From: a phage | Length of the DNA: 44,855 nucleotides | NCBI GenBank assembly: GCA_012164735.1 | Contig: GCA_012164735.1_4544.1 | Strand: one strand, 5' to 3' | Shown here: positions 12,983-32,269 of the stretch, piece by piece | Position numbering within the stretch: the stretch's first letter is position 1 | Layout: the number at the start of each line of letters is the position of its first letter | Translations under genes and position numbers: made by a program | Notes under the pieces: generated by a model | What the model was told of the DNA's origin: nothing | Database searches by the model: none | Seen by the model: only the letters and a program-made list of their open reading frames with translations

Positions 12983-13094
12983 CCCGTCCGCAGACCCCGA
13001 CGAGGATTTGATGATTGACGTGAAAAATATGGAATGCGGGGCGAAGCTAAGGGCGCAGGTGCTGGAGTTGCAGCAAATAATTAAGGGGCCGTAA
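12864..13094 (+). CDS. o-spanin (Rz1-like outer-membrane lipoprotein), overlapped with and extending beyond the i-spanin gene
   Basis: MLRALTALIVVLILSAC lipobox (LSAC), Pro-rich mature part; RBS agagg; ATG 12864 in frame with ORF-track TTG start at 12855. Confidence 0.55.
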   Translation: MLRALTALIVVLILSACGSSNVPLMPLTESALRPPCKFDSPSADPDEDLMIDVKNMECGAKLRAQVLELQQIIKGP

Positions 13095-13107
13095 TGGCCC
13101 CTTTTTC
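13084..13107. terminator. Bidirectional rho-independent terminator between convergent genes
   Basis: Stem aggggcc/ggcccct, loop gtaat, T5 on plus; A/T flank on minus. Confidence 0.6.
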
Positions 13108-13108
13108 G

Positions 13109-13873
13109 TTATCGCGGAATACCGCAAATCTCGTTGAGAGTTTTCACATCCAGCGCCACCGCCGTGGATTTTGGCTTGTCCGGGTATGGGATGAATTGCT
13201 CAACTTCAGGCCATGCCTTAATCAGCTTTTTGTCAGTATTGTGCAGATCCAGCACACCGGTAACGGTGAGTTTGAACGCATCATACTTCGCGCGCAACTC
13301 GCGACGGGCCTTGTCGTTACGGTCCAGGCGCTTACAGAAGTCGTGGTCTGCCGGGTAGTCCGCGCGACAGCGCGGCTTATAGATCGGCAGCGCTTTCCCG
13401 TCCTCGTCCACTTCGCACACAGAAGCCAGCATTACTTCTTCGTACCCTGGTACAATATCGCCGAGATCGGGAGATAGCTTATTCATGTATTTATATTCCC
13501 AGTATCCGCGATGTACTCGGTATTGTCGTCCGTCGCCGCTCAATGACAGTGTGCGCACATTTCCGCCTGCGTTGATTTCGAAAGTGGCGTCGTAAACGCT
13601 GCCGATGCCTTTTGGGCGGTCAGCGTTATAACTATACGTCGCCTTGTTGGTGTATACGCTTACTCCGTACATCTGCGACGGGTTATCGCCGATTGCTTTA
13701 ATGCGCGCGAGTAGCTCGGCGAAAGTGCGAATGCCTTCCGGCATACAGTCCAGCGTAATGGCGTACGCCAGGTCGCGCGAGTCCATCATGATGGATTTGG
13801 CTTCGGTCGCGATTTCATGGTCGCGCAGGATGTTAGCCAGAATCCGGTTTTTAATGTCTTTCGTCAGTCTCAT
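13109..13873 (-). CDS. Hypothetical protein (254 aa) encoded opposite to the structural operon
   Basis: ATG with RBS gagga; no recognisable domain by inspection. Confidence 0.6.
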   Translation of the reverse strand: MRLTKDIKNRILANILRDHEIATEAKSIMMDSRDLAYAITLDCMPEGIRTFAELLARIKAIGDNPSQMYGVSVYTNKATYSYNADRPKGIGSVYDATFEINAGGNVRTLSLSGDGRQYRVHRGYWEYKYMNKLSPDLGDIVPGYEEVMLASVCEVDEDGKALPIYKPRCRADYPADHDFCKRLDRNDKARRELRAKYDAFKLTVTGVLDLHNTDKKLIKAWPEVEQFIPYPDKPKSTAVALDVKTLNEICGIPR

Positions 13874-13916
13874 TATTGTGTCCTCATTGTTGGGGCTTTC
13901 GCCCCTGTTGGTTTAG

Positions 13917-14324
13917 TTAAAGTGCTTCGAGAATCTCGTAAAACTTATTCGCCAGCGCCTGGCGTCGTTCGAATTTTTCAGTGATAACCAATTCCGGGCG
14001 GTTAAATAGCTTTGCGTGGGTGTTCCAATTGAGGATTTCCGTTTCCATTATTTTCTTCCTGTTGTAATCGGTGTTTTTGATGCTGAATTCCTTGATAGCG
14101 TTATTAAGAAAATCAGTCATACACTCAACGTCTGTTCTCTTAACTTCGAACGTACGGGCCTCGATTGGGCTATTTGTGCGAAGTACGACGACTCCGCCGT
14201 GGTAGGTGTCGACTACCATATACTTATAAGTCACCCCATCCCACTCCGGGTCGAAAGGGCGCCCAAATACGTCGTCGGCTTTCCATACTTTCTGGTACGG
14301 TGTTTCTTTGATTAATGTTGGCAT
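13917..14324 (-). CDS. Hypothetical protein (136 aa), start moved to internal ATG 14324 with RBS aaggaa
   Basis: N-terminal 151 codons of the ORF-track call are low-complexity antisense of the scaffold gene; RBS precedes MPTLIKE. Confidence 0.5.
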   Translation of the reverse strand: MPTLIKETPYQKVWKADDVFGRPFDPEWDGVTYKYMVVDTYHGGVVVLRTNSPIEARTFEVKRTDVECMTDFLNNAIKEFSIKNTDYNRKKIMETEILNWNTHAKLFNRPELVITEKFERRQALANKFYEILEAL

Positions 14325-14352
14325 CTTGTTTTCCTTCATATCTCTGTTGGTG

Positions 14353-14375
14353 TGCAACCAATATATGCAACCAAT
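14353..14375 (+). promoter_or_regulatory. Paired TGCAACCAAT motifs (14353-14362, 14366-14375) in a divergent intergenic region
   Basis: Two perfect 10-mers 13 bp apart. Confidence 0.5.
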
Positions 14376-14414
14376 ACGAGGATTGCAAGCGAATTTTGCG
14401 ATTATTTTTATCGC

Positions 14415-14423
14415 TGATAATAT
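14415..14423 (+). promoter_or_regulatory. Extended -10 promoter candidate (TGaTAATAT) preceded by TCGCTGATA, upstream of scaffold and capsid genes
   Basis: Same TCGCTGATA-extended -10 arrangement recurs at 20281-20293. Confidence 0.35.
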
Positions 14424-14478
14424 TAGAAGCGTGAAGTCGAGCGGGTGGCCTGCTCTGCCACAATCCCAGGGGGATAGC

Positions 14479-15180
14479 ATGAAACTTACTAAAGCAGAAT
14501 ATGACGCGTTGCCGGAAGGTATGAAGGCGCTTTTTGTTGCCGATGGCGACGGGTATAAATCAACTTTCATGACCGCAGAAGAAGTACAGGCGGAAATCAA
14601 GGGTCTGAAAGACAACAACGCGAAGCTGGTGAGCGAGAAGAAAGCAGAAGCTGAACGCCGCGCCGAAGCCGAGCGACTTGCGAAAGAGAAAGAGGAAGCC
14701 GCTGCGCGCAAAAATGGCGACCTCGAAGCGATCGACAAGTCCTGGAAAGATAAGTTTGCGAAACACGAAGCAGACACATCGGGAAAAATCGAAGCCTACC
14801 GCAAGCAGATCCACGATCTCACCATCGGCAGCGCCGCCAAAGACCTGGCGTCGAAGCTGTTCGGTAAGAATGCGGGCATCATGCAACGTCACGTTATGGA
14901 CCGCCTGACGCTGGAAGACGGCGAAGACGGCAGCTTGAAAGTGCGTGTCTTGCAGGATGGCAAACCGTCCGCGCTGACTATGGAAGAGCTTGAAAAAGAG
15001 TTCCGTAATAACGCCGATTTTGCATCCGTCCTGGCTGGCACGCCAGCCGGTGGCGCGCCTAGCAAACCGACGCAGGTTGTCGAAGATGTGAAGTCTAAAA
15101 TTACGATGGGCCATAGCTTCGGTATCACCGATCTCACCAAACAGGCCGGGGATATCATCGCTAAAATGGGCGACGAGTAA
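14479..15180 (+). CDS. Scaffolding protein (putative), start at ATG 14479
   Basis: 233 aa, charged coiled-coil-like sequence; RBS aggggga; immediately upstream of major capsid gene. Confidence 0.5.
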   Translation: MKLTKAEYDALPEGMKALFVADGDGYKSTFMTAEEVQAEIKGLKDNNAKLVSEKKAEAERRAEAERLAKEKEEAAARKNGDLEAIDKSWKDKFAKHEADTSGKIEAYRKQIHDLTIGSAAKDLASKLFGKNAGIMQRHVMDRLTLEDGEDGSLKVRVLQDGKPSALTMEELEKEFRNNADFASVLAGTPAGGAPSKPTQVVEDVKSKITMGHSFGITDLTKQAGDIIAKMGDE

Positions 15181-15185
15181 GCAGA

Positions 15186-15209
15186 TTGCCCGCGAAAGCG
15201 GGCAATTTT
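15186..15209 (+). terminator. Rho-independent terminator
   Basis: Stem ttgcccgc/gcgggcaa, GAAA loop, T4. Confidence 0.5.
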
Positions 15210-15277
15210 GCGAGCGCGTAAAACTAAGGTAACATTAATGCCACTGGGCGAATGCTCACAACTCAAAGGATTTCGAT

Positions 15278-16378
15278 ATGTCTTTAACAGTGTTCCAGCG
15301 TAAACTCGTTACCGCGGTTACGCAAATGATCCCCGACAACCTGAACGTTTTCAACGCCGCCGCCAATGGCGCTATTGTTCTCGGTACTGGTGAAGTGCTG
15401 AAGGATGTTGTTGAGAAAATGTCCGTAGGCTTGATCGCCAACCTTGTTACCGACCGTAACGCCTACGCCCCTGTCGGTACTCCGGCAACCGCTAAAGTGC
15501 TGGCGCGTATGTTGACCAACTCGGTTAACCTTTCCGCTAAAGTGGGTCCGGTAGCAATCACGAAGGCCATGATGGCTAAAATCGAAACCAACGTTAATAG
15601 CGTTGCGGCTGAGATTGCGGCACAGGCTACTCAAGCGATTATGCTGCACTACCTAAAAGCGGGTATCGGTGCGGGTAAAGCGGCGATCGAAAGCAACGCA
15701 GCGGCAAAATACACCCAACCGGCGCGCGTTGACGGCGTTGGCGGTCGTACCTTCCCGACCCTGGCAGACTTCCCGCTGGCGGCTTCTAAGTTCGGCGATC
15801 AGGCGTCTTTGATTAAGTCCTGGTTTATGGACGGCGTTACCTGGGCAAACTTCATTGCGTACCAGGCACTCCCTTCCGCTGAACAGGTATTCGCAATTGG
15901 CGATCTACAGGTAATGGGTGATGGCCTGGGCCGTCGCTTCATTATCTCCGATGCCGCTGCCGATGCTATGGGCGCTGGTAACATGCTGGGTCTGGTCCCC
16001 GGCGCGGTTGCAGTTACCACCAACGGCCTCGATATGCTGGCGCAGGAGAAAGGCGGTAACGAGAACATCGAACGCTGGTGGCAGGGCGAGTTCGACTTCA
16101 ACGTGGCCGTTAAAGGCTACCGTCTGAAGGCGTCCGCTCGTACCCCGATCGAAGGTGTGCGCTCGTTCAAACTGGACGATATTACCACTTCCGCTAACTG
16201 GGAACTGGACCAGGGCCAGGTAGACAACGCACCGGCAACCGTGCAGGACGTTGGCGCTGTGGGTGATGGTGATACTAAAGGTCGTCGTAAGACCCAGGCC
16301 GCACAGGCAGTGCCTACCCGTCACATCAAGGAAACCGCTGGCGTACTGGTTACGCTGACTGCGACTACCGCGTCTTAA
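15278..16378 (+). CDS. Major capsid protein
   Basis: 366 aa, RBS aagga, followed by strong terminator; synteny. Confidence 0.75.
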   Translation: MSLTVFQRKLVTAVTQMIPDNLNVFNAAANGAIVLGTGEVLKDVVEKMSVGLIANLVTDRNAYAPVGTPATAKVLARMLTNSVNLSAKVGPVAITKAMMAKIETNVNSVAAEIAAQATQAIMLHYLKAGIGAGKAAIESNAAAKYTQPARVDGVGGRTFPTLADFPLAASKFGDQASLIKSWFMDGVTWANFIAYQALPSAEQVFAIGDLQVMGDGLGRRFIISDAAADAMGAGNMLGLVPGAVAVTTNGLDMLAQEKGGNENIERWWQGEFDFNVAVKGYRLKASARTPIEGVRSFKLDDITTSANWELDQGQVDNAPATVQDVGAVGDGDTKGRRKTQAAQAVPTRHIKETAGVLVTLTATTAS

Positions 16379-16396
16379 CGGGCGCACATCCCAAAG

Positions 16397-16421
16397 GGGC
16401 GGGCTTATGCCCGCCTTTTTT
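16397..16421 (+). terminator. Rho-independent terminator after capsid gene
   Basis: Stem gggcgggc/gcccgcc, loop ttat, T6. Confidence 0.65.
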
Positions 16422-16436
16422 ATAGGAGTGAATACA

Positions 16437-16937
16437 ATGTATGGCGACCCGCAAACCTTTGTCGATTATGCCGCTGCGCGAGGCGTTGAAATTACGCTAG
16501 GCGATGCAACGCGACACCTTACCATCGTTAACGACTTTCTTAACGGCATCAACTGGATCGGCGAACCGGCGGACCAGACAGGAATAGACGCATGGCCCCG
16601 CATCAATTACCCATCGGACGGGAAGCCGGTGCGCGACACGCTAACCGAAGTCGTGGCGGTAGTGCCTGTCGGGCAAATCGTAGACTTTGCATCAATCCCC
16701 GTTGCCGTTGAGCAAGCTGTTTACCGGCTGGCGCTGTTGGTGGCGGACGAGATCGATATTTCTCCGGTCGGCGATGGTAAAGAGACTATCCGCGAAACGG
16801 TCGGCCCGATCACGATGGAATATGACCCGGCGTCGATTGGTAGCGGGGTGTCGTTCCCGTGGTGGGATGGCTTGTTAGGGCACTGGGTTGATTCAGGCGG
16901 CAACGCCGCAGGCAATTTCGACGTATTCAGGGGGTGA
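16437..16937 (+). CDS. Hypothetical structural protein (possible head-tail connector), start at ATG 16437
   Basis: RBS aggag; ORF-track start 16407 lies inside the terminator. Confidence 0.45.
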   Translation: MYGDPQTFVDYAAARGVEITLGDATRHLTIVNDFLNGINWIGEPADQTGIDAWPRINYPSDGKPVRDTLTEVVAVVPVGQIVDFASIPVAVEQAVYRLALLVADEIDISPVGDGKETIRETVGPITMEYDPASIGSGVSFPWWDGLLGHWVDSGGNAAGNFDVFRG

Positions 16938-17041
16938 TATGAATCCTGCATTACTCGCGGCGATTATCGCCGCCAACGCTAAACGGCAACCAGAACAACC
17001 GGAGCCAGAACCAGTACCACCGGCACAGGAGAGTGAAGAAG

Positions 17042-17395
17042 ATGGCGGGCTTTAATTACGCAGGATTAAAGCGGAAAGTTAATCCGCTGATTAAAAAATT
17101 CGGCATGACCGTTACGGTTACGCGTCCGGGATCGGTTGACCGCGTAGACGGCGAAGAAGTGGTCATCCCGCCGACCTCGTTTGACGTCATCGGTCTTCGC
17201 GAGGAGTACAAGCCTAGCGAGATCGACGGGACGCGTATCGTTGCCGGTGATGTGAAGTTTTTATGTCGGGCGGTTGAGCAATTGCGGGTGGGCGACCTTG
17301 TTAACCTGAACGGCACTGACTACCGGGTCGTCAACCCTAACCCACTGCAACCGGCGGGCACTACCATGCTGTTTCAACTACAGCTAAGGGGCTAA
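17042..17395 (+). CDS. Head-tail joining protein (putative)
   Basis: Position between capsid and tail genes; RBS aggag. Confidence 0.4.
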   Translation: MAGFNYAGLKRKVNPLIKKFGMTVTVTRPGSVDRVDGEEVVIPPTSFDVIGLREEYKPSEIDGTRIVAGDVKFLCRAVEQLRVGDLVNLNGTDYRVVNPNPLQPAGTTMLFQLQLRG

Positions 17396-17396
17396 C

Positions 17397-17990
17397 GTGG
17401 CTGAAGTCTACTCATTCGCCGCCACTATTGCTACGTGGGTGGATAAGACGAAGGAGAACAACGATAAGGCGGTGCGGGCGTACGGGATGCAAATACTAGG
17501 ACGCCTGATCGAGATCTCCCCAGTAGGCGACCCCCGCCGGTGGAAAATTAACAGGGCTTACGCGCTGGCCCGCCAGCACGCGAACAAGGTGAACGCCGCG
17601 CAGCGTCGCAAGAATGGTGGCAAACTGAAGCGCGGGCAGAAAAAGCACGCCAGCGTGCTGGTATCATTCAAAACTAAAAACGGCAACGTCACGTTCCGCC
17701 AGCGTGGCTGGGCTGCGAAGAATTACACCGGCGGGCGCTTCCGTGGTAACTGGCAGGTGACGTTTGATCGCCCGGCTGTCGGCGCTATTGATCGCGTTGA
17801 CAAGGCCGGAACGGCAACATTAGCCGCGGGGCGTGAAGTGCTGGCGCATTACGATTCGAGTGAATACGGGTCGATCTGGTTTACTAACAACGTGCCATAC
17901 GCGCAGCGACTTGAGTATGGCTGGAGTAAACAAGCGCCCGCGGGGATTGTTCGCGTCGTAGCGGCAGAAATTAATTCGAAGGTGAAATAA
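17397..17990 (+). CDS. Head-tail connector / tail completion protein (putative), GTG start
   Basis: 197-aa ORF, synteny. Confidence 0.4.
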   Translation: MAEVYSFAATIATWVDKTKENNDKAVRAYGMQILGRLIEISPVGDPRRWKINRAYALARQHANKVNAAQRRKNGGKLKRGQKKHASVLVSFKTKNGNVTFRQRGWAAKNYTGGRFRGNWQVTFDRPAVGAIDRVDKAGTATLAAGREVLAHYDSSEYGSIWFTNNVPYAQRLEYGWSKQAPAGIVRVVAAEINSKVK

Positions 17991-18412
17991 TGAGCAATAC
18001 CGCAATCCGCAAAGCGCTTAACAGCGTGGTTGAAGAGTTATCGGCAAGCCTGAGCACAAGCCAGCGTCCGATTATGGTTAACTGGGAGAACGTGAGCGGC
18101 GACCACGCAAACGGCAGCGGTGTCTACCTGGAGCCGTACCTGCTACCGGCCCCGACCCAGTTTGTGGGCTTACAGCAGAAGGGCCGGATCTATGCTGGCG
18201 TATATCAGGTTGCCGTGGTGTTCCCGGCGGGCACAGGCACACAGTACGCGAGCGAACTGGCGGACGCCATCGCTACATCGGATAAGTGGTCGGCGGTGAA
18301 GATTTCCGGCGCGTCATTTCAGCTTCAGGACGCGCCATACACCAGTTCAGTGATTGAAGACGTTGATCGCGCCCGCATCGTGGTTACAGTCCCCTACACC
18401 TGTTGCGCCTGA
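17990..18412 (+). CDS. Tail terminator / tail completion protein (putative)
   Basis: 140 aa, ATGA overlap, immediately upstream of major tail protein. Confidence 0.4.
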   Translation: MSNTAIRKALNSVVEELSASLSTSQRPIMVNWENVSGDHANGSGVYLEPYLLPAPTQFVGLQQKGRIYAGVYQVAVVFPAGTGTQYASELADAIATSDKWSAVKISGASFQLQDAPYTSSVIEDVDRARIVVTVPYTCCA

Positions 18413-18473
18413 TTTGGCGCAATTCTGCGCGTGCTGTATCATTAAACCGTATATCTAAACAGGAGCGTTCATT

Positions 18474-19199
18474 ATGGGTTATCAACTTCCTAACGGGTCC
18501 AGCGTGCAGATCGGGTCCGTATTGGGTGCAGGCATCGCAGTTACGGCAGCGACCAACGCCGCGGCGTCAATCTCCGATCTTACGCAAGGATGCGTTATCA
18601 CCTGCGCGGCGTCGCATGGTCTTGCTGTGGGAGACGTGGTTATGTTCACTAAAACCCCGTGGGTACGTGCGCTTAACCGCGCGTTCATCGTGGGTAAAGT
18701 GGATACTAACGACGTGACGCTGGCGCGCTTCGATACTCAAGACGTAACCAAATACCCGACCGGTGCTTTCGGAGTAGGCACACCGGGTGAGGTGGTGAAG
18801 GTGTCGAGCTTTATCGACTTCCCGTTTATCACTAACGTTGCCGTGTCGGGTGGCGACCAGCAGACCACCACCTTCCAGCCGTTGCAGGTGAATACCGCGA
18901 TCAGTCTGAACACCACGAAAAACCCGTTGGTCCAGACCTACACTTTCACCCACGACGAAGAAGACCCGATCCGCCCGATTCTGGAAGACCTGGACGACAC
19001 ACAGAAAACCACTGTGATTAAGTTCACCAACCCGGCAGCGGCAAGCGGCAAAGGTGAGATCCGCATTTACCCGGCTAAGGTGTCTTTCCAGAAGATTCCA
19101 TCTGCTGAAGTAAATAACGTGGAGACGGTGGAGTCCACCCTCACTATGCAGTCCGATATGGTTATTTACCGTAAGGACTTGGTCGAGGCGCTGTCGTAA
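18474..19199 (+). CDS. Major tail protein (tube)
   Basis: 241 aa, strong RBS, followed by terminator then the G/GT chaperone pair. Confidence 0.6.
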   Translation: MGYQLPNGSSVQIGSVLGAGIAVTAATNAAASISDLTQGCVITCAASHGLAVGDVVMFTKTPWVRALNRAFIVGKVDTNDVTLARFDTQDVTKYPTGAFGVGTPGEVVKVSSFIDFPFITNVAVSGGDQQTTTFQPLQVNTAISLNTTKNPLVQTYTFTHDEEDPIRPILEDLDDTQKTTVIKFTNPAAASGKGEIRIYPAKVSFQKIPSAEVNNVETVESTLTMQSDMVIYRKDLVEALS

Positions 19200-19229
19200 T
19201 TTGGTCGCTTAAATAGCGGGTGTTAATAT

Positions 19230-19252
19230 GGGGCCAGTACGGCCCCTTTTTT
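19230..19252 (+). terminator. Rho-independent terminator
   Basis: Stem ggggcc/ggcccc, loop agtac, T6. Confidence 0.6.
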
Positions 19253-19269
19253 ATTGGAGAATTACATAA

Positions 19270-19631
19270 TGGCTAAATCACCACTCTTCACACTTGACCC
19301 TAAACCGACATTTAAGCTGCCGATTGAGATCCCGCGCCCTGGTGAGAACGAACCGGGCAAAATGACGTTTACCGTGCGCCACCGCCCTATCGACGAATTT
19401 TCGCAGACCATGCAGGACACTGAGCGCAAATTGTCGGAGTATGACGACAATGACCCGGAAGGATTTAACGTTATGGTCGAGGCCATCATGCACGTCGCTG
19501 AAGGCTGGAATTTGCCGGACGAATTTAATGCTGCCAACGTCCGCCGCCTGGTGGTCAACTACCCGCGCGCGTTCGGCGTGTTCCATACGTCGTACTATCT
19601 CGAACTGATGGGGTTGCGTGAAAAAAACTAA
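19270..19631 (+). CDS. Tail assembly chaperone (lambda G-like), zero-frame product
   Basis: Position before tape measure; ends at a slippery site. Confidence 0.65.
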
Positions 19632-19945
19632 TTGAGGCGGCGCGACGCTTTTATGGCCCGCCGCCACCCTCCGAAGATTTAGCTGCGAGTTTATGGGGCG
19701 CGACCCCTGAAGATGTTTGCCCGCCGGTTGCGCTATGGCCTGACAACGCGAAGGTAGTCGCCGTCTTCACTGATTGCTCCACGCAATGGCGCACCGGATT
19801 CGGTGGCGCATACGGCATCGACTACGGTGTACTGGAATGGCTATTTAAGATGCACGGCATCGAAAACGCGCAACGTGCGTTTAAAGATATCAAGCTAATG
19901 GAACGCGTTGCGCTGGATGAAATGGCGCGGCAGAACCACGCATAG
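19270..19945 (+). CDS. Tail assembly chaperone GT-like fusion via programmed -1 frameshift at A_AAA_AAC (19622-19628)
   Basis: Open -1 frame from 19628 to stop TAG 19943-19945 (105 codons) directly after a canonical slippery heptamer. Confidence 0.55.
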
Positions 19946-19949
19946 CGGA

Positions 19950-20276
19950 GCGGGACAGGCGGGACGTCCCGTTTTGTCCCGCCACAATTAAACCGCATAT
20001 ATACTCACTTTCATTGCATAAACTAAAAGCGGGACAGGGGAGCTGTCCCGATCTGTCCCGCACCCAAAATGTGAATATCTATTCAGTTTTCGTGCATAAA
20101 GTAAGCGGGACAAAAAGCGGGACAGAATGAGGCGGGACAAAGCGGGACAGCACCCCTGTCCCCGTCAGTGCTGCCGCGGGTTTTAGCCGATCGGGACTGG
20201 CGGGACAAACCCCAGTCTTTCAGACTAGACGGGGGTCAATGGCCCCCCTCGTCTGAGACTGAATAAGGTTTGTTTT
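19950..20276. repeat. Copy 2 of the duplicated element and additional iterons: GCGGGACA direct at 19950, 19959, 20029, 20105, 20117, 20132, 20142, 20200; inverted at 19975, 20044, 20054; 67-bp palindrome at 20210-20276
   Basis: Counted directly; 20071-20276 aligns with 2844-3049. Confidence 0.8.
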
Positions 20277-20284
20277 AAATTCGC

Positions 20285-20293
20285 TGATACAAT
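20285..20293 (+). promoter_or_regulatory. Extended -10 promoter candidate (TGaTACAAT) preceded by TCGCTGATA, upstream of tape measure gene
   Basis: TG 20285-20286, TACAAT 20288-20293. Confidence 0.35.
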
Positions 20294-20329
20294 GACCGAC
20301 GGCAACTGCATAAAAAGGGGGACTGCATA

Positions 20330-22975: not shown

Positions 22976-22982
22976 TAAAATG

Positions 22983-23611: not shown

Positions 23612-24396
23612 ATAAACTATATCGCGAGGCGACGCGCTTTGACCCATCGGGCCGCGTTCGCCTGATTCACATTGACGCGCAGGACGTGGAGCCGGGCGAC
23701 GGCGCGATCGGCGCGGGCCACCACTATTTTCATTACTGCTTTATTCCGCATACTGCCGAAGATATTGCTGCCGCTGGTGGAGACGAGGACAAGCTGAAGC
23801 CAAAATCTATCTTCTTTGGCGGGCAGGAGTTCGAATTTTGGCCCTTCGATTTGTCCGGCCTCAACTTCTCCACATCAACGGCAGCAGAACCGCAGCTAAC
23901 TATCGTCGATATTGGCGGGATTATTACCCGGCTATCGCTGAATCACGACCAGCTACTTGGCGCGAAGGTTGAAATCATAGACACGTTTGCTAAGTTCCTG
24001 GACAACGGGCCAGATCCAGACCCAACGCAAAAACGTGTACAGGAGTTTTACATCGACTCCCAGGTGGGCCGAAATCCGGGCAAACAAATCACCTTCGCAT
24101 TATCCTCGCCCGCGGATATGGAGGGGCAAGTAGTCCCGCGCCGCCAAATCATGAACATGTGCGAATGGGCGCTCAATGGGAAGTACGCCAGCGGGGACGG
24201 GTGCACGTGGAACCTTGCACAGCCAGGCATCAAGTATTATGACGAGCGCGGTAATGAAGTCATCGCGATGGATATGGACCGGTGCGGCGGCTGTTTGTCC
24301 GACTGTTATCTTCGATTTGGACAAGGGCTTGCAGATCCGAAAGCGGCGGTACTGGACTACGGCGGCTTTCCGGGGTCCAGATTAATTAAGGGGTAG
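23608..24396 (+). CDS. Minor tail protein (lambda L-like) with C-terminal Cys cluster
   Basis: 262 aa; CGGCLSDC Cys motif; synteny. Confidence 0.65.
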   Translation: MNKLYREATRFDPSGRVRLIHIDAQDVEPGDGAIGAGHHYFHYCFIPHTAEDIAAAGGDEDKLKPKSIFFGGQEFEFWPFDLSGLNFSTSTAAEPQLTIVDIGGIITRLSLNHDQLLGAKVEIIDTFAKFLDNGPDPDPTQKRVQEFYIDSQVGRNPGKQITFALSSPADMEGQVVPRRQIMNMCEWALNGKYASGDGCTWNLAQPGIKYYDERGNEVIAMDMDRCGGCLSDCYLRFGQGLADPKAAVLDYGGFPGSRLIKG

Positions 24397-24398
24397 TC

Positions 24399-25139
24399 AT
24401 GTTAACGAAAAAGGTTAAGAGCGATATCGCCGCACACGTTGCGGCATGTCTGCCTGAAGAAGCGTGCGGCCTGGTCGTCATGGTGGGCCGTAAGCAAGTA
24501 TTTATCCCGTGCCTGAACGTGTTCGAAGACCCGACCGGCGCGCGATCGCGTAAGGACGCGTTTACAATTAGTGATATGGCATGGATGGACGCCGAGGATA
24601 TTGGCGACGTCGTGCGCGTAGTCCACTCACATCCAGGTCAGCGGGAGTTAACCCCATCATTGGGCGACGTTAACGGATGCAACGGCAGCGGCATAGTGTG
24701 GACCATTACCAACGAGTACGGCGACTTTATCGAGATCGACCCTGAAGACCCACCACTGGTAGGTCGCCGATTTGTTCTCGGAATTACGGATTGCTATGGC
24801 CTCGTCATGGACTGGCACAAAAAGCAGGGCGTGAATCTGCCTGACTTCCGCGTGCCGTACAACTGGTGGGAGATGGGCGAAAGCCTGTACATGGATAACT
24901 GGTATGATGCGGGATTCAGGGAGTGCGCGGAGAATACGCCGGGGGCAATGGTCATCATGCAGATTAGCGCACCAGTGCCAAACCATGCTGGGATCTTCCT
25001 TCCGGGCAACCAACTACTACACCATATCTACGGCAGCCTGTCGAGCGTGGTCCCCTTCCGGGCAGGATTTTTCCGCGACAATGTGGTTAAATGGGTACGT
25101 CATAAAGACTTACCTGGGGAAATCACAGAATGGCAATGA
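24399..25139 (+). CDS. Tail assembly protein (lambda K-like; MPN/JAB plus NlpC/P60-like)
   Basis: VVHSHPG ... S ... D JAB-like motif; synteny. Confidence 0.75.
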   Translation: MLTKKVKSDIAAHVAACLPEEACGLVVMVGRKQVFIPCLNVFEDPTGARSRKDAFTISDMAWMDAEDIGDVVRVVHSHPGQRELTPSLGDVNGCNGSGIVWTITNEYGDFIEIDPEDPPLVGRRFVLGITDCYGLVMDWHKKQGVNLPDFRVPYNWWEMGESLYMDNWYDAGFRECAENTPGAMVIMQISAPVPNHAGIFLPGNQLLHHIYGSLSSVVPFRAGFFRDNVVKWVRHKDLPGEITEWQ

Positions 25140-25747
25140 CCACATTTAAATTGTACGGCGTCTTAGGACGTCGTTTTGGTAAAGTGCATAAGCTGGACTG
25201 CTTCACACCTGGCGAGGGTATCACCGGCCTATGCGTGAAGTTGCCAGGCTTACAGGACTTTCTAATGTCGGCCCACCTGGAAAACATGATGTTCAAGGTG
25301 CGCAAGGGTAATCACACAATGACCGGCTACGACGAGTTGGGTGAGTTCCACGGCGACCGCGTAGTTACCATCGCGCCGGTTATGACTGGTGCTAAAAGCG
25401 GACTTGGACAATTGCTGGCTGGCGTAGCTATCGTGGTGGCGTCGTTCTACACTGGCGGGCTTGCCGCTGCCGCTTTCGGGGCTTCCGCTGCGACCGCCGC
25501 CGCTATCGGAACGGCGACGTTTTCGTTCGGTATGTCGCTTGCGCTGGGCGGCGCTATGCAATTGCTGTCACCGCAACCGAAAGGATTGCAGACACGGCAG
25601 GACGTGGATAACAAGGCGTCGTATGCGTTCGGCGGGCCGGTAAACACGACCGCGCAAGGCACAGCACTTGGTGTATTATGGGGCGAGCGTGAGATCGGCG
25701 GCGCTATTATTTCAGCCGGAATTGTAACCGAGGATTTGAACGAATGA
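25130..25747 (+). CDS. Tail assembly protein (lambda I-like)
   Basis: 205 aa with Gly/Ala-rich hydrophobic C-terminal half; synteny. Confidence 0.7.
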   Translation: MAMTTFKLYGVLGRRFGKVHKLDCFTPGEGITGLCVKLPGLQDFLMSAHLENMMFKVRKGNHTMTGYDELGEFHGDRVVTIAPVMTGAKSGLGQLLAGVAIVVASFYTGGLAAAAFGASAATAAAIGTATFSFGMSLALGGAMQLLSPQPKGLQTRQDVDNKASYAFGGPVNTTAQGTALGVLWGEREIGGAIISAGIVTEDLNE

Positions 25748-28700
25748 CGATTATCTACGACGTCACGGGCCATAAAGGCGGCGGTGGCAAACAGCACACC
25801 CCACAGGAGACGCCTGATAGCCTGCATTCGCTGGCTAAAATCCGCATCTTGCTCGCACTGGGCGAGGGCGAATTTGAAGGCATCCCCGACCCTAACGAAT
25901 TACGGCAGCGTGTATACCTGGACGGCACACCGATCCAGAACGCCGACCTGTCGGATAACTTCCCCGGCGCGCGCGTGGAGTTCCGCCCCGGCACGCAGCA
26001 CCAGGATGTGATTCACGGTTTTTCAGCGGTGGAAAGCGAGCAAACAGTAGGCGTAAAACTGGAACAGGGACAGCCGTGGGTCCGCCAGATTTCGGACACC
26101 AGTCTGGACGCGGTGCGTATTCGAATCGGTATTCCGGCCCTGTACACCAACGAAGATAACGGCGACCTGGTGGGCGGGCGCATCGACTATAAAATCGTTG
26201 TGTATACAGATAACGCCGATCCGCGCGAGTTCACATTCGCTGCCGTTGGTAAAACAATGTCGCTGTACGAGCGAGATCACCGCATCGAATTACCGTCTAA
26301 CGTTAACACCGGCTGGCGCGTGGAGGTGATCCGCACAACGGCAGACTCCACATCGGCGAAAGTGGTCAACGATATCCAGGTACAATCCATTACTGAGATT
26401 ATCGACGCCCGCCTGCGATACCCGCTAACCGCGCTGTTGTTCGTGGAGTTCGATGCTAAGGCGTTCCAGAACATCCCGCGTGTGTCCATCAAGTGCAAAG
26501 GCCGCAAAGTGCTGGTCCCGAACAACTATGACCCCGTGAATCATACCTATTCTGGTAACTGGGACGGCACATTTAAACGCGCCTGGACGGATAACCCTGC
26601 GTGGCACTGGTACGATATTTGTATTACTGAGCGCTTCGGCCTCGGTCGTCGTGTCAAACCACAAATGCTAAACCGTTACGCGCTCTACCAGATTGCGCAG
26701 CGCTGCGACCAGATGGTCAGTGACGGCAACGGCGGTCAGGAAATCCGATTTAAGAATGATATGTACATTCAATCGCAGACCGACGCCTGGACCGTGCTGA
26801 AGGATTTAGCGGCTATCTTTGCCGGTATGACCTGGTGGGGCAACCAGATGCTGAATATCGTCAGTGATCAGCCGGTCGCAGCGGTATCGCATACTATCAC
26901 CAACGCCTCGGTTATTGATGGTCGATTCGACTACGCATCGGGGAGCCAGAAAACTCGGTATTCCACGTTCTCGGTAGCCTACGGCAACCCGAAAAACCAT
27001 TACGAGGACGCCATCGCAACGGGCCAGCGTGTCGAACTGGTGCGCCGCCATAAGATTAACCGCCTTGATATTACGGCGATCGGCTGTACGCGTGAATCTG
27101 AAGCGCAACGCCGCGGACACTGGGCGCTAATCTCCAACCAGCTTGATCAGCAAGTTAGCTTTAAGGTTGGCATGGAGGGGTTATTCTTTATTCCGGGGAG
27201 CGTAGTCGCGATCGCAGATACTAACATTTCTGGCGGCTTCGAGACACGCGGCGGACGTCTGTTGTCAGATCCGGGCACGCGCACCGTGCTGAACACGGAC
27301 AGCGAAATCACGTTCCGCCCTGGCGATAAATTCCTGGTGCGCACCGATAGCGGTAATGTGGAGACTCGCGAGATTGCCAGCGTCAACGGCAACCAGGTCA
27401 CGCTAAAAACCGCACTGGACGCCGACCCAATTCCTGATCAGCCGTTTTGCGTTGATGGCGATGATATCCAGTTGCAGAAGTTCCGCATCACCGACCTGGA
27501 ATATGACGACGCTACCAGCACTTTCTCGGTGCGCGGGATTGAGTACAATGACAGCAAATATGATGCCGTTGATAATGGCGCGCGTCTTGATCCGGGTATC
27601 TTCACGCAAGTGCCGGACGGTGTAATGAAGGGGCCAGAATCCGTTACCATCACCCCGTCGCAGATCTCATCACAAGGCCAGCTAATCACCAACGTGGATA
27701 TTGTTTTTCCGCCGGTGAAGGATGCCGTTGTGTACGAAATCCAGTGGCGACGTACCAGCTTGCAGAATCTGGAAATCCAGTGGGGCAACGACTGGGTTAA
27801 CATCCCCCGCACGGCGTCGAATGGTGCGCATATCCCGAACGTGTTTTCTGGTAACTACCAGGCACGCGTCCGCGCTATCGGTATGGGCGAGATTTCATCC
27901 CCGTGGGTGTCGTCCGCCATCACGCCGGTGGAGGGTCGTCTTGGTGGGCTTAACGCGCCTATCATCACCAACGCGATTTCGGGCCTTCACCAAATTTTGT
28001 GGAAGTGGAATCACAACAACGCCGCAACGGATATTTCGTATACCGAGCTTGAAGTACGCAAGCTGGGCGAAACGGAATGGAAATTCCTAACCAACGTCCC
28101 ATATCCGGGGTCGGACTATGCGCAAACGTCGCTGGAGTTCGGGGTCTACCAGCAGTTGCGCGCACGCGTAGCGGATAAAATCGGCAACCTGTCAGACTGG
28201 TCCGATCCGTTCGACGGGCAGGTGAGTGACAAAGTTGACGAGTACATGCAGGGGCTTGATGACGAGTTCTTGACTTCCGAGGACGGTAAACACTTCCAGG
28301 AAGCAATCGACACCATTCCGCAAGGCATCTATGAGTCAATGCTTACGGACGCCCAGCAGTTATTCAACGCCCGCGCCGAGTATAAAGGGATTTATGCAGA
28401 AATTACGGTGGCGTATAACGTGGCGGCGGACGCTCACGAAGCCGTAGCGCAACTGGAAACGTTAATCGGCACGCGCCTTGACGACGCCGAAGCGTCAATC
28501 CACACGTTGCAGACCGCGCAAAGCACGCATGAGCAAGCATTCGCCCAGTACCAACAAACTGTTGCCGCTAAGTTCGGGGAGCAGGAAGCTGCCATCCAGC
28601 AGGTACAAACGGCAACGGCAGACGTAGCGGGCGCGCTGGCGGAGTATAAGACCCAGGTCGCGGCACAGTTCGGTCAGCAGTCCGCAGCTATCGAGCAGAA

Positions 28701-29190
28701 GATGACGTCCTCGTTTAACCATGCTGGCGGTAGCGCCACATACAGCCTTAAGGCTGGCGTGACGTATAACGGGACTTACTATGATGCCGGTATGCAGCTT
28801 TCCGTCGTGGCGGAAGGTGGCGCGGTTAAATCACGCATCGCGTTCAAGGCGGACCAGTTCTACATCATGCACCCATCTAACGGGTCGCTCTCGTCCGCGT
28901 TTATCGTTGACGGCGGGCAGGTGTATATTGACACGGCACGCATCAAGAACGCGTCTATTAACTTCGCGCAGATCACGGACACGCTGCAATCCAATAACTG
29001 GAATCCAGGTAACAGCGGCTGGCGTATCGCGAAGGATGGCGGGGCGGAGTTCAACAACGTTACGGTACGCGGCAACTTGTTCGCAACTACGGGTAACTTT
29101 GGATTCTCCGGCGGGTCAGTGACTATCGACGCAACGGGCGTCAACGTGCCATTACCTGGAGGGGGCAGGGTGAAAGTCGGGACGTGGTAA
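25744..29190 (+). CDS. Tail tip / host specificity protein (lambda J-like central fiber)
   Basis: 1148 aa following the I-like gene. Confidence 0.85.
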   Translation: MTIIYDVTGHKGGGGKQHTPQETPDSLHSLAKIRILLALGEGEFEGIPDPNELRQRVYLDGTPIQNADLSDNFPGARVEFRPGTQHQDVIHGFSAVESEQTVGVKLEQGQPWVRQISDTSLDAVRIRIGIPALYTNEDNGDLVGGRIDYKIVVYTDNADPREFTFAAVGKTMSLYERDHRIELPSNVNTGWRVEVIRTTADSTSAKVVNDIQVQSITEIIDARLRYPLTALLFVEFDAKAFQNIPRVSIKCKGRKVLVPNNYDPVNHTYSGNWDGTFKRAWTDNPAWHWYDICITERFGLGRRVKPQMLNRYALYQIAQRCDQMVSDGNGGQEIRFKNDMYIQSQTDAWTVLKDLAAIFAGMTWWGNQMLNIVSDQPVAAVSHTITNASVIDGRFDYASGSQKTRYSTFSVAYGNPKNHYEDAIATGQRVELVRRHKINRLDITAIGCTRESEAQRRGHWALISNQLDQQVSFKVGMEGLFFIPGSVVAIADTNISGGFETRGGRLLSDPGTRTVLNTDSEITFRPGDKFLVRTDSGNVETREIASVNGNQVTLKTALDADPIPDQPFCVDGDDIQLQKFRITDLEYDDATSTFSVRGIEYNDSKYDAVDNGARLDPGIFTQVPDGVMKGPESVTITPSQISSQGQLITNVDIVFPPVKDAVVYEIQWRRTSLQNLEIQWGNDWVNIPRTASNGAHIPNVFSGNYQARVRAIGMGEISSPWVSSAITPVEGRLGGLNAPIITNAISGLHQILWKWNHNNAATDISYTELEVRKLGETEWKFLTNVPYPGSDYAQTSLEFGVYQQLRARVADKIGNLSDWSDPFDGQVSDKVDEYMQGLDDEFLTSEDGKHFQEAIDTIPQGIYESMLTDAQQLFNARAEYKGIYAEITVAYNVAADAHEAVAQLETLIGTRLDDAEASIHTLQTAQSTHEQAFAQYQQTVAAKFGEQEAAIQQVQTATADVAGALAEYKTQVAAQFGQQSAAIEQKMTSSFNHAGGSATYSLKAGVTYNGTYYDAGMQLSVVAEGGAVKSRIAFKADQFYIMHPSNGSLSSAFIVDGGQVYIDTARIKNASINFAQITDTLQSNNWNPGNSGWRIAKDGGAEFNNVTVRGNLFATTGNFGFSGGSVTIDATGVNVPLPGGGRVKVGTW

Positions 29191-29196
29191 ATGAGA

Positions 29197-29219
29197 AGGG
29201 GCCATCCGGCCCCTTTTTT
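29197..29219. terminator. Bidirectional terminator between J-like gene and the minus-strand cassette
   Basis: Stem aggggcc/ggcccct, loop atcc, T6. Confidence 0.6.
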
Positions 29220-30183
29220 AATAGATATTAGGAATGACGAGTAACGGGGTGGGTACGGCAATATTTTTGCCCGGCATTTGGAATTGCTGCCGTGAGTAGT
29301 TGCCAATAACGCGGTTTTTAGCGATGCGCACATTATTACCCGCCATTCGTATCCCGTTCATGCGCACATGGTTATAGCCGCTGTTGTTCTCAATGAGCGC
29401 ACCGGTATATGAAAGCTGGATCAGACTATTACCGATGTGCTGGTCGCCGCCACCGATATTAATCGTGCGGTCGTAGACAAACGGCTTGTTTACCGTCGAG
29501 AACGTGACCTGCCCCTGGTTGTTAGTCATGGTGATACCGGTCCCCGGTGAGGGCGGCGTATTGTTGAATATCACCAGGTCCATATCAACGGCAGCGCCTA
29601 CGTCGTCAATCCCGCCATAGGACGCATTACGGACAATGATACTTCCGCCATCGAAGCCAACCGATACGTTGCCGTCGTCCCAGCGCGCGAACGGGACACC
29701 GCCGACGGGAAGCGGCATACTTCCGTTTACATGCACGCGCTGCGCATATCGGCAGGTCATTAGCCGTGCGACGTTGGATATTGCGGTGAAGTCCGTTGCG
29801 TTAGCTACCAGTAAGCCCGCATTGCGTGACCCCACCGGCAGCACTTCCATAATCACCCCGCCCCATGTTGGAAGCCCGCTGTATGCGTTATAGGCATCCT
29901 CACCGCGCAAGGTGATTCCGCCATCCCCGTTACGTTGTATCGACGTCACATAAAACGGGTCTGGCAAGACCAGGGTCTGGTCGAATACTTCCATCACTTC
30001 TACCGGATTAGTTAGGGCAACGACCAGTTCGGACCCCGGTGTCAGCGGTGTGTTAATGGTCAGCGTCTTGTCAGACTGACAGCGCTGATTAAAGGTAGTG
30101 CAGAACGACGGAGCGCGAAGGCCCGCGGTTATCTCCATGACAGGTCTACCGTCGTTGTAGTCGATAAGTATTCCAGCACCCAT
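29218..30183 (-). CDS. Hypothetical Gly/Asn-rich beta-rich protein (321 aa; ATG 30183 preferred over GTG 30192)
   Basis: RBS gggag 9 nt upstream of the ATG; no signal peptide; repeat-like beta-strand composition. Confidence 0.55.
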   Translation of the reverse strand: MGAGILIDYNDGRPVMEITAGLRAPSFCTTFNQRCQSDKTLTINTPLTPGSELVVALTNPVEVMEVFDQTLVLPDPFYVTSIQRNGDGGITLRGEDAYNAYSGLPTWGGVIMEVLPVGSRNAGLLVANATDFTAISNVARLMTCRYAQRVHVNGSMPLPVGGVPFARWDDGNVSVGFDGGSIIVRNASYGGIDDVGAAVDMDLVIFNNTPPSPGTGITMTNNQGQVTFSTVNKPFVYDRTINIGGGDQHIGNSLIQLSYTGALIENNSGYNHVRMNGIRMAGNNVRIAKNRVIGNYSRQQFQMPGKNIAVPTPLLVIPNIY

Positions 30184-30185
30184 TA

Positions 30186-30407
30186 TTACCACTCCCGTGA
30201 TTTAACTGATACAGTACCTGAGAAATTGCCGTCGCTATCGGCAGATAGGCCAGTGAAGCGCATGTCCACGCCTCCGGCAGGGACTTTTTGCCCGTCAACA
30301 TAACGCAACATGCAGCTTCCGTAAGCCACCGTAATGCAATCACCGTTGTTGCGTTCTACGGCACAACCGGACAAAAGAACAGCACAAATCATAATTAAAG
30401 TTTTCAT
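30186..30407 (-). CDS. Small lipoprotein (73 aa), candidate superinfection-exclusion protein (Cor/Llp-like)
   Basis: MKTLIMICAVLLSGC signal peptide with lipobox LSGC; strong RBS aggag; location between tail tip and fiber genes. Confidence 0.6.
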   Translation of the reverse strand: MKTLIMICAVLLSGCAVERNNGDCITVAYGSCMLRYVDGQKVPAGGVDMRFTGLSADSDGNFSGTVSVKSREW

Positions 30408-30487
30408 GTTATCATCTCCTATATTTGGTTGAGTTTTAGTATTACACCGCTCGATCAAGAATGCAACCAATTTATGAGGATTTAGCT

Positions 30488-32242
30488 ATGGCAGCGGGTA
30501 CACTATCCGTAACGAATAACAGCACCGCGGTGACTGGAGACGGCACAACGCTTACCGCGCTGAAGGCGGGCGACTTCCTGTCGCTGGTAGTAGGGCAAGT
30601 CCCTTACACTATTGCTATTGCATCCATTGAGAGCGACACCGCGCTTACACTGGCGCTGCCGTTCGACGGCCCAACGGCAACCGGCCTCGCATGGGATAGC
30701 GTGGCGCGCGATACCATGTCCCTTGCAACGATGGGCGTAACCGTCCAGGCGCAGAAAGCACTACGCTTGATGATCGCGGATGAGAACAACTGGCGCGCAA
30801 TCTTCGGCGACGATGAAGAAATCACAGTGACGTTACCTAACGGGCAGGTTATGCAGGGCATGTCATGGGGCTATCTGTCACAGTTGATGAAACAGATCGA
30901 CCCCGTTGAGATGCGCAACCTGCAACAACAAGCCGCCGCATCTGAAGCAGCCGCGCAAGGATTTCGTAACGAGGCTGAAGGATTTCGAGACGGCGCGCAA
31001 GGATACCGCAACGAGGCGCTCCAATTCCGCACCGACTGCGAAGGGCTGAAGAACGAAACGACAAACCTTCGCAACGATGCGCTCCAATTCCGCACCGACT
31101 GCGAAGGGCTGAAGAACGAAACGACAAACCTTCGCAACGATGCTAACACAGCTAAGACTGGCGCGGAGACGGCACGCGATCAGGCGCAGAACATCGCCGA
31201 CGGTATGGACCCTGGACAGTATATGCAGAAATCTGCAAACCTGAGCGATGTAGTGGATAAGGCGCAAGGCCGCGCGAATATGGGTCTTGGCACTACAGAT
31301 GCCGTGGAGTTTGGTGGGGCCACCCTCAATGGTCCCACCCGCATCAATGGCTCGTTGCTGTTGGGGCGTAACCAGTGGGATGGGTCTAGCTGGGGGGTCT
31401 ACGGACTACAATCGTCATTCGTCATCATGTCGCCGGATGGAGACTCCGAGCCGGGATTTTACATCAGGCCGCTATCGGGTGCGCCTGGGTACGCAACGTC
31501 GTTCACCTATAATCTCGCGATTAATCTTTTCAGCACCGGTGCTCGCATCAAGGCGGTTAACTTCGCATCCAGCACTACGACTATGGGATATAACGAGATG
31601 TGGTCACGTGCATGTTTCCAGGGGCAGCCATACGAAGCCCAGGCGGGGGTTGAGAACTACCAATCGCTTGTCGCAGGTACTTGCGGTACGGTATCACACG
31701 GATTTTACGGTGGCGTTGCGTTCGGCATGATGACTGCTGGCAGGGCTGGGTGGCCTGTCGGTCAGATCTCGATCGGCACGCAGGACAGAGCCGCTGACGG
31801 CACTATCGGATTACAAATGCACTTCCGTTTCCATGCATCCGGTAACATTACGTATACGGGGCCGGCGGGGAAGGGGTCATTCCAGCGAATCCCGGCATCT
31901 GACCGCAACATTAAGCATGATATTAAAGACGATAAATCCAGCACAGCATACGATAACATTCGAGCCATTCGATTCCGTAATTTCGTATTTAATGATGACG
32001 AGCAGGAGCGTATTCGTCGCGGGGTTATCGCACAGGAGCTTGAAGAAATCGACCCGCTTTATGTTAAGCACCGCGAATACCACAACATGGAGCTTAACGG
32101 GCCGAAGATTACGCGACTGGAGCTTGACACGACGCCGCTGTTACTGGACACAATGCGAGCGTTGCAGGATACGATTAAGCAGGTGGAGGAGTTGAAGGCG
32201 GAGATCGCGGCGTTGAAGCAGGCGGAAGAGTTGAAGAAATAG
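30488..32242 (+). CDS. Tail fiber with coiled-coil repeat region and C-terminal intramolecular chaperone (self-cleaving, peptidase S74-like) domain
   Basis: Start at ATG 30488 with RBS gagga; 63-bp perfect tandem repeat 31018-31143; C-terminal SDRNIKHDIKD motif from 31898. Confidence 0.75.
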   Translation: MAAGTLSVTNNSTAVTGDGTTLTALKAGDFLSLVVGQVPYTIAIASIESDTALTLALPFDGPTATGLAWDSVARDTMSLATMGVTVQAQKALRLMIADENNWRAIFGDDEEITVTLPNGQVMQGMSWGYLSQLMKQIDPVEMRNLQQQAAASEAAAQGFRNEAEGFRDGAQGYRNEALQFRTDCEGLKNETTNLRNDALQFRTDCEGLKNETTNLRNDANTAKTGAETARDQAQNIADGMDPGQYMQKSANLSDVVDKAQGRANMGLGTTDAVEFGGATLNGPTRINGSLLLGRNQWDGSSWGVYGLQSSFVIMSPDGDSEPGFYIRPLSGAPGYATSFTYNLAINLFSTGARIKAVNFASSTTTMGYNEMWSRACFQGQPYEAQAGVENYQSLVAGTCGTVSHGFYGGVAFGMMTAGRAGWPVGQISIGTQDRAADGTIGLQMHFRFHASGNITYTGPAGKGSFQRIPASDRNIKHDIKDDKSSTAYDNIRAIRFRNFVFNDDEQERIRRGVIAQELEEIDPLYVKHREYHNMELNGPKITRLELDTTPLLLDTMRALQDTIKQVEELKAEIAALKQAEELKK

Positions 32243-32245
32243 GAG

Positions 32246-32269
32246 AGGGGCCATACGGCCCCTTTTTTT
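32246..32269. terminator. Bidirectional terminator at the convergence point of the plus and minus transcription blocks
   Basis: Stem aggggcc/ggcccct, loop atac, T7. Confidence 0.65.

Follow-up and report, generated by a model that had tools for sequence, protein, structure and literature searches.

The window analysed here, a stretch of 44,855 nucleotides (nt) from GenBank assembly GCA_012164735.1 (contig GCA_012164735.1_4544.1), carries four hairpins, designated S1 to S4, that share one G+C-rich stem and differ in their loops. Their sequence and placement indicate, with a probability that we put at roughly 0.82, that they are Rho-independent terminators of the rightward late and structural transcripts of a Dhillonvirus phage, read by host RNA polymerase, and that the shared stem reflects history and purifying selection. 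The window is a complete or near-complete genome of Dhillonvirus, the HK578-like siphophages of Escherichia coli.

The window contains exactly four matches to the pattern GGGGCC-N(3-7)-GGCCCC (positions 13085-13101, 19230-19246, 29198-29213, and 32247-32262), always with a spacer of 4 or 5 nt. The expected number is 0.04, and none of 100 dinucleotide-preserving shuffles reached four. Since the hexamer GGGGCC alone is not enriched (26 found versus 26.6 expected), the signal lies in the palindromic arrangement. Each hairpin combines a stem of 6 to 8 G+C base pairs (bp) with a loop of 4 or 5 nt, within the limits generally used for terminators (~5 to 14 bp and 3 to 8 nt), and is followed on the + strand by a T-run with 6 or 7 T's in the first 8 nt 3' of the stem. 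The 6-bp core has an energy of approximately -12.4 to -12.5 kcal/mol at all four sites, and the energy in a 46-nt context is -14.6 to -19.4 kcal/mol, with centroid folds dominated by the hairpin. All four sites are placed 0 to 30 nt past the stop codons of rightward late genes, namely, those for the o-spanin, the major tail protein, J, and the lateral tail fibre. The built-in terminator scan overlooked S3 and S4 on the + strand because it prolongs their stems into the T-run via A-T and G-T pairs; our own scan, which recovers both, was used in its place. The motif count, T-runs, and folds bear out the first-pass annotation of this sequence, which had described four intrinsic terminators with one stem and differing loops.

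The relatives compared comprised 10 complete GenBank genomes, 18 IMG/VR contigs, and 8 metagenome contigs, the last corresponding to a metagenome search with S4 and its right flank that returned 8 loci and contributed little. S1 to S4 are orthologous and at the same positions in ~30 relatives, with stems that are almost invariant and loops that are free to vary. An S1 orthologue was found in 24 of 24 relatives, and the GGGGCC 5' arm is exact in 22 of the 24 contigs; S2 is kept in 25 relatives (exact arm in 23 of 25 contigs), the S3 arm is exact in 12 of 12 contigs, and, of 25 contigs examined for S4, 21 yielded it, 18 of them with the exact arm. The loops, in contrast, read GTAAT, GTGAT, or ATAAT at S1; AGTAC, AGCAC, AGCAA, GTCT, or GATT at S2; ATCC, ATCT, ATAT, AGAT, GTTT, or AAAC at S3; and at least 10 different variants at S4. 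Substitutions within the stems can be compensated: S2 of the LM40P1 clade has the stem GGGGGC-GTAA-GCCCCC, and in two contigs the basal G-C pair of S4 has become A-T, giving AGGGCC...GGCCCT. In a hand-picked set of 21 variants, 3 of 8 pairs showed compensatory double changes and 95.8% of cells were paired, a result matched by 0 of 500 shuffles. Given the conserved pairing, the compensatory changes, and the free loops, these elements behave as structural RNA hairpins rather than as sequence-specific sites.

This conclusion bears directly on whether S1 to S4 might instead serve as recognition elements, either in DNA for a dimeric regulator or in RNA for a sequence-specific factor, with an incidental T-run. 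The stem sequence is invariant in most relatives and the palindrome has perfect dyad symmetry, which would suit such sites, but we consider this explanation very improbable. The spacer is 4 or 5 nt long, free in sequence, and even inverted in some genomes; the substitutions preserve pairing, not sequence (GGGGGC/GCCCCC, AGGGCC/GGCCCT, and GGGGCT/AGCCCC); a T-run follows every copy, each directly past a stop codon; and an Rfam search of the window returned no family match (a tRNA search of the window likewise found none). The operator reading was rejected on the compensatory changes.

All other strong terminators of the genus keep both their positions and their own stems in the same way. In distant relatives, a terminator stays at the same junctions and its stem is replaced: at the S1 junction, the stem is GCCCGGC in c050407 (73% amino acid identity), and at the S2 junction it is GCCGCC in phiJLA23 (60%) and GACCGCC in L147 (44%). 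A distant relative, L159, carries ~10 ATT repeats (its positions 15330-15365) directly past an S4-type hairpin. A mobile palindromic element, similar to repetitive extragenic palindromic (REP) sequences or miniature inverted-repeat transposable elements (MITEs), was ruled out, since every copy is orthologous and S3 is missing only where its whole cassette has been replaced.

Some of these hairpins have been annotated before. The HK578 record (JQ086375) lists the S1 orthologue as a rho-independent terminator on both strands, based on ARNold, and likewise annotates a hairpin of the type found at 13892 in the window (Table 1) as a terminator. In Tunavirus SA32RD (OL960578), GGGGCC-AATC-GGCCCC between the J and DUF6453 genes is annotated as terminators on both strands, and in T1 (NC_005833), terminators are annotated behind the genes for the major tail protein and J, the same junctions as S2 and S3. 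These annotated relatives thus resemble the window in having terminators at matching junctions, although the stems of T1 differ from GGGGCC/GGCCCC. S2, S3, and S4 are unannotated in the Dhillonvirus records examined, the annotations of the records examined do not mention the sharing of one stem by four sites, and searching the literature for Dhillonvirus terminators gave no title or abstract specific to the subject. Taken together, these observations are consistent with S1 to S4 being ordinary, genus-wide intrinsic terminators whose shared stem is real and modest in meaning.

Table 1. Hairpins and clusters of mosaic breakpoints in the window
Feature	Position	Strand	Loci	Sequence or location
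S1	13083-13107	+		Hairpin AAGGGGCC-GTAAT-GGCCCCTT, then TTTCG; putative end of head-morphogenesis/spanin unit
S2	19230-19252	+		GGGGCC-AGTAC-GGCCCC, then TTTTTTA; predicted terminator or attenuator
S3	29196-29219	+		AAGGGGCC-ATCC-GGCCCCTT, then TTTTAA
S4	32246-32269	+		AGGGGCC-ATAC-GGCCCCT, then TTTTTTA
Related shorter hairpin	13892-13905	+		GGGGC-TTTC-GCCCC; absent from the list in the first-pass annotation
Breakpoints	13105-13129		5	Directly right of S1
Breakpoints	13888-13921 and 14314-14353		Up to 22 per cluster	Cassette slot next to the 13892 hairpin
Breakpoints	28999/29074 and 30359-30394		Up to 17 per cluster	Borders of J C-terminus/receptor-binding cassette
Breakpoints	30880-30999		24	Within the fibre gene, past the N-terminal anchor
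Breakpoints	32173-32195		7	50 to 70 nt left of S4
Breakpoints	32235-32248		11	Directly left of S4; homology with relatives carrying another fibre allele resumes here

The gene order of the window is that of its annotated relatives. For region 12000-33000, the closest of the 160 matching phage records is Escherichia phage RuthEpting_Bas85 (92.5% identity, 94% query coverage). Rightward genes for replication and lysis, terminase, portal, head morphogenesis, spanins, head, tail, J, and the lateral tail fibre are followed by a long leftward replication block, which ends the gene order. S1 is a backbone element that is partly coding: the o-spanin stop TAA (13092-13094) sits within its loop, and each of the S1 loop variants retains an in-frame stop (TAA or TGA). 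Its 5' stem arm encodes the final o-spanin residues (…K/R-G-P). On its other side, S1 adjoins a leftward open reading frame (ORF) with an Nmad5 domain (PF18757; stop at 13109-13111). S2 lies between two genes on its own strand, for the major tail protein (18474-19199) and the tail assembly chaperone (19254/19269-19631; PF08748). S3 separates the J-like tail tip gene (+ strand; stop at 29188-29190) from a convergent gene for a DUF6453 membrane protein (- strand; stop at 29218-29220), beyond which lies a phage lipoprotein gene. S4 separates the lateral tail fibre gene (+ strand; stop at 32240-32242), whose product has a C-terminal Peptidase_S74 chaperone domain, from a convergent 191-amino-acid ORF (- strand; stop at 32268-32270), the final member of the leftward replication block. 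At each site, a 6- to 8-bp G+C hairpin with a 4- to 5-nt loop, directly past the stop codon, would be transcribed together with the 5 to 7 U's that follow. By this mechanism, S1 would close the head-morphogenesis/spanin unit, S3 the tail operon after J, and S4 the lateral fibre gene, while S2 probably attenuates transcription past the abundant major tail protein.

The first-pass annotation had also called three of the hairpins bidirectional boundaries of opposite-strand modules. By position this is true of S1, S3, and S4, where the stop-to-stop gaps are merely ~15 to 27 nt, S2 being the one site between same-strand genes. A canonical bidirectional terminator, however, has an A-tract that mirrors its U-tract. 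The runs upstream of S1, S3, and S4 are ATTAA, GAGAA, and GGAGA, which give weak leftward U-tracts, and the - strand tails are interrupted (UUAAUUAU, UUCUCAUU, and CUCCUAUU), in contrast to the 6 or 7 U's in 8 nt on the + strand. Our own scan passes S3 alone on the - strand; ARNold passed S1 on both strands in the HK578 record. Since the leftward tracts are interrupted, the sequence gives no clear sign of equal termination in both directions, and the bidirectional claim is upheld in part, by the convergent placement. For the convergent leftward transcript, S1, S3, and S4 probably act as a weaker terminator or a 3'-end stabiliser. These sites resemble bidirectional intrinsic terminators in having one hairpin in a convergent gap of no more than 27 nt and differ from the canonical form in their weak leftward U-tracts.

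We next considered whether the shared stem is more than chance. Our scan predicts ~15 to 17 strong terminators in the window, four of which end in GGCCCC; the other stems are GCCCGC-like (four), GGCGGG (two), or, in several cases, unique. Of 65 terminators predicted in 250 kilobases (kb) of E. coli K-12 plus phage T1, none ends in GGCCCC, and the most frequent hexamer reaches no more than 2 or 3 of 65. At an assumed true frequency of 4.5%, the probability of finding at least 4 among 15 is ~0.003. The sharing of one stem among S1 to S4 is non-random, and the similarity goes beyond the generic resemblance of GC-rich stems that had been raised as a possible explanation.

Beyond the stem, S3 and S4 also share a purine run, a 4-nt AT-rich loop, and a tail, with up to 24 consecutive identical bases when S3 of one genome is compared with S4 of another. 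In c050407, S3 (GGGGCCAATTGGCCCC) and S4 (GGGGCAAATTGGCCCC) are 1 base apart, with the loop AATT and a TTTATTA tail in both, which suggests copying or conversion between the two. S3 and S4, nearly identical together with their flanks in several genomes and in one distant relative, resemble duplicates of a single element.

The S3 stem can also be followed beyond the genus. In Tunavirus ULIM2, the DUF6453 cassette contains GGGGCC-GATT-GGCCCC (76% amino acid identity) at the S3 junction, and no further GGGGCC hairpin was present in the first 50 kb scanned of the 51.5-kb genome; the cassette of Tunavirus SA32RD retains the GGGGCC stem at 42% identity, while Seuratvirus PLYYY01 (GGGGC-TTCC-GCCCC) and Webervirus F20 (GGGGCT-ATTC-AGCCCC) have stems related to it. 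Since the stem is kept in the DUF6453 cassette of other families, S3 is an inherited internal part of a mobile module and not its boundary. An alternative J C-terminus cassette (KarlBarth and Kente) has GCCCC-GAAA-GGGGC in place of S3, and T1 has GCCCC-TTGC-GGGGC, which follows the same GCCCC-nnnn-GGGGC pattern, at the matching place in its own locus. At the fibre locus, the C-terminus in Tunavirus ISF002 (75% identical) is followed by TCCCCGC-ATT-GCGGGGA, an unrelated hairpin, and a Kuravirus homologue is followed by AAGCCCC-TTCG-GGGGCTT. The possibility that S4 travels with the fibre C-terminus was rejected on these grounds; S4 stays with the backbone.

These data frame the question of whether GGGGCC/GGCCCC is simply a generic optimum for a short strong terminator that was reached four times with no common history. 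The exact motif followed by TTTT is found in at least 120 unrelated IMG/VR viral contigs of 31 to 67% G+C; other stem "vocabularies" recur, both in the window (the GCCCGC-like and GGCGGG stems) and in T1, which reuses CCCGC/GCGGG three times; and stems turn over at fixed positions in distant relatives. Such pure convergence is possible, but we regard it as doubtful, given that the stem is missing from the 65 predicted host and T1 terminators, that S3 and S4 also share their purine run, loop type, and tail and co-vary in c050407, and that the S3 stem is kept across families even where the neighbouring protein has dropped to 42% identity, which points to inheritance. Instead, we prefer a combination of selection and inheritance, with S3 inherited and S4 perhaps derived from it. 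S3 would be an old component of the receptor-binding cassette that is shared with T1-like phages, the stem would be one that phages use repeatedly, and most likely it has no role beyond termination. The IMG/VR census, which was used solely for the spread of the motif and for second copies and not for relative stem frequencies, contained a second GGGGCC hairpin in 9 of 120 loci among the matches listed (loci average ~8 kb). It seems common for a phage genome to use a given terminator stem more than once, judging from these 9 of 120 listed loci, where the copies lie within a few kb of each other, and from T1.

Some of the loops are inverted between relatives. The S3 loops ATCT (c3837) and AGAT (LF50P3) are exact reverse complements, in flanks that are 95 to 98% identical; the same relationship holds for the S3 loops GTTT (LM40P1) and AAAC (c003101) and for the S4 loops ATAC (several genomes) and GTAT (c008614). 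Each pair is best explained by a single template-switch inversion of the loop. An apparent inversion of the S2 loop in EP23 (AGTAC to GTACT) was downgraded, since GTAC is itself palindromic and a deletion together with an insertion would produce the change equally well. Loop inversions demonstrate an interaction of the DNA arms during replication, which could help to hold the stems perfectly complementary.

The first-pass annotation had proposed that the shared boundary sequences could be sites for modular recombination or could derive from a common mobile cassette boundary, and that the flanks should be aligned across related genomes. Breakpoints were taken from BLAST comparisons with all relatives (Table 1). 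They abut S1 and S4, but none was seen at S2 in any close relative, and S3 is internal to its swapped cassette. Comparison with the 10 complete genomes gave 56 breakpoint clusters. The four hairpins account for 0.75% of the window and had 2 clusters within 30 nt; strong terminators of any kind account for 3% and had 10 nearby; gene starts and stops account for 11% and had 25 nearby. All three classes are thus enriched ~4- to 6-fold. Since enrichment is similar in all classes, the association is the general one of mosaic joints with gene ends. The four hairpins are therefore not supported as specific recombination sites. Nor do they mark a common mobile cassette boundary, given that S3 lies inside its cassette, that the alternative cassette has a different hairpin, and that S4 belongs to the backbone.

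Part of the recombination proposal does stand: the S3 hairpin is a passenger in a module that moves between phage families, and conserved intergenic segments that include hairpins flank swappable ORFs beside S1. This slot, which extends from S1 to the scaffold gene (13109-14345), holds zero to two leftward ORF cassettes in relatives, the alternatives being Nmad5, an HK578_006-like ORF, a Bas85_0008-like ORF, and a RusA-like ORF (SO-1). The window has the Nmad5 and HK578_006-like ORFs, between which lies the 13892-13905 hairpin, with adjoining breakpoints at 13888-13893 (11 loci) and 13921 (6 loci). The segment 13900-14340 is common to just 7 of ~160 related records. Exchange points in the slot fall exactly at start or stop codons, between conserved short segments: the hairpin GGGGCTTTCGCCCC together with GTTTAGTTAAA at one edge, and a ribosome-binding site together with TGTTGG at the opposite edge. 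The S1-side slot is thus a classic case of conserved intergenic linkers around swappable ORFs, with the hairpin as one of several linker components.

We therefore weighed whether S1 to S4 act as recombination linkers like those of T4-type phages, in which a shared 20 to 25 nt would give the annealing/exonuclease system homology for swapping the flanked cassettes. The breakpoints immediately right of S1 and immediately left of S4, the slot with its alternative ORFs between conserved hairpin and ribosome-binding-site segments, the 24 identical bases that S3 and S4 can have in common, the loop inversions as a sign of interacting DNA arms, and the second copies of the stem in unrelated viral loci all fit this explanation, as do the phage's own genes for a Gp2.5-like annealing protein and an exonuclease. 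We nevertheless consider it unlikely. Only 2 of the 56 clusters lie at the four hairpins, with no excess over any other terminator or gene end; S2 is without a breakpoint, S3 is within its cassette, and the alternative cassette has a different hairpin. Moreover, in the fibre and J genes most breakpoints fall within the coding sequence, at borders between domains (28999 and 30984). This agrees with the BASEL paper, which describes two dips in similarity for Dhillonvirus, one at the locus downstream of gpJ and the other past the 5' end of the fibre locus (PMC8594841). A scan for sigma-70-type promoters lists no site within ~100 nt of S1 to S4, and no deletion or exchange joining two of the four hairpins was seen. 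Under the terminator reading, cassette exchange would end at S1 and S4 because the hairpins sit at gene ends beside conserved backbone, and the hairpin would not itself recombine.

A bolder version of this idea would extend to small siphoviruses (Dhillonvirus and T1-like phages). Common-stem terminators would be DNA-level exchange points, the siphovirus counterpart of the T4 elements; GGGGCC...GGCCCC-T(n) microhomology would let the annealing/exonuclease system graft foreign cassettes; and template switching, both inside a hairpin and from one hairpin to another, would maintain identical stems. We give this proposal little credence. It can accommodate the loop inversions, the breakpoints next to S1 and S4, and the additional copies found in unrelated phages, yet none of these calls for it.

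Several considerations count against the terminator reading that we prefer. Termination at S1 to S4, and attenuation at S2, we infer from sequence features. The leftward U-tracts are poor, which leaves the reverse-strand function of the hairpins uncertain. Four of ~15 strong terminators with one hexamer would be unlikely under the E. coli/T1 spectrum and call for a shared cause, and elements of such length allow no demonstration of either descent or convergence. The loops of S3 and S4 are no closer within genomes than between them across the genus (mean Hamming distance of 1.9 versus 1.81), so recent copying or conversion is not seen; concerted evolution of the pair within the genus was dropped as an explanation for the same reason. 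Finally, our terminator scan is simple, and the E. coli/T1 background sample is small.

Repeats of other kinds were also observed in the window. Two non-coding regions 17.2 kb apart, 2837-3039 (following the helicase-primase gene) and 19947-20266 (between the tail chaperone and tape-measure genes), have common segments that are 78 to 97% similar and are packed with the octamer GCGGGACA, of which the window has 19 copies versus 2.15 expected, 15 of them inside these two regions. The arrays match the "region A/B" repeat features of the SO-1 record and may serve as iteron-like binding sites. A 63-nt tandem duplication (31007-31132; 98% identical) lies in the lateral tail fibre gene, just past the conserved N-terminal part. 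Imperfect direct repeats rich in GTC/ATC triplets occur at 41090-41308 and 44204-44512, with a 90-nt tandem pair at 44307-44486; they lie within leftward ORFs and would encode acidic Asp/Glu-rich runs on the coding (-) strand.

If S1 to S4 are indeed ordinary terminators, their value is mainly for annotation, as they would provide four reliable transcription-unit ends in Dhillonvirus, or five with the 13892-13905 hairpin. The compact, genus-conserved terminator of 16 to 17 nt is also a possible synthetic part. For studies of mosaicism, a terminator beside a breakpoint is no proof of cause, as gene ends are equally enriched. S3 adds a minor point to the known sharing of receptor-binding cassettes across families, each allele having its own internal convergent terminator, and the loop inversions neatly illustrate template-switch mutation in phage terminators.

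The closest known counterparts differ from these hairpins in several respects. PeSLs, the promoter-early stem-loops described by Arbiol et al. in 2010 and Comeau et al. in 2014, are the T4-type elements with which S1 to S4 invite comparison. In T4-type phages, PeSLs are composite terminator/promoter elements that cluster in hyperplastic regions, and their positions coincide with insertions and deletions (PMC2839356; PMC4122927). The likeness lies in short, repeated, terminator-containing intergenic motifs beside variable genes, whereas only two of the four copies in the window touch breakpoints, at the level of enrichment of gene ends, and no listed promoter accompanies them. The loop changes have a parallel in rRNA hairpins, where "loop inversion only" is an enriched class of single template-switch events (Monttinen and Loytynoja, 2022; PMC8794818). 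Some orthologous loops of S3 and S4 are reverse complements in the same manner, albeit in phage terminators rather than rRNA and in a handful of events.

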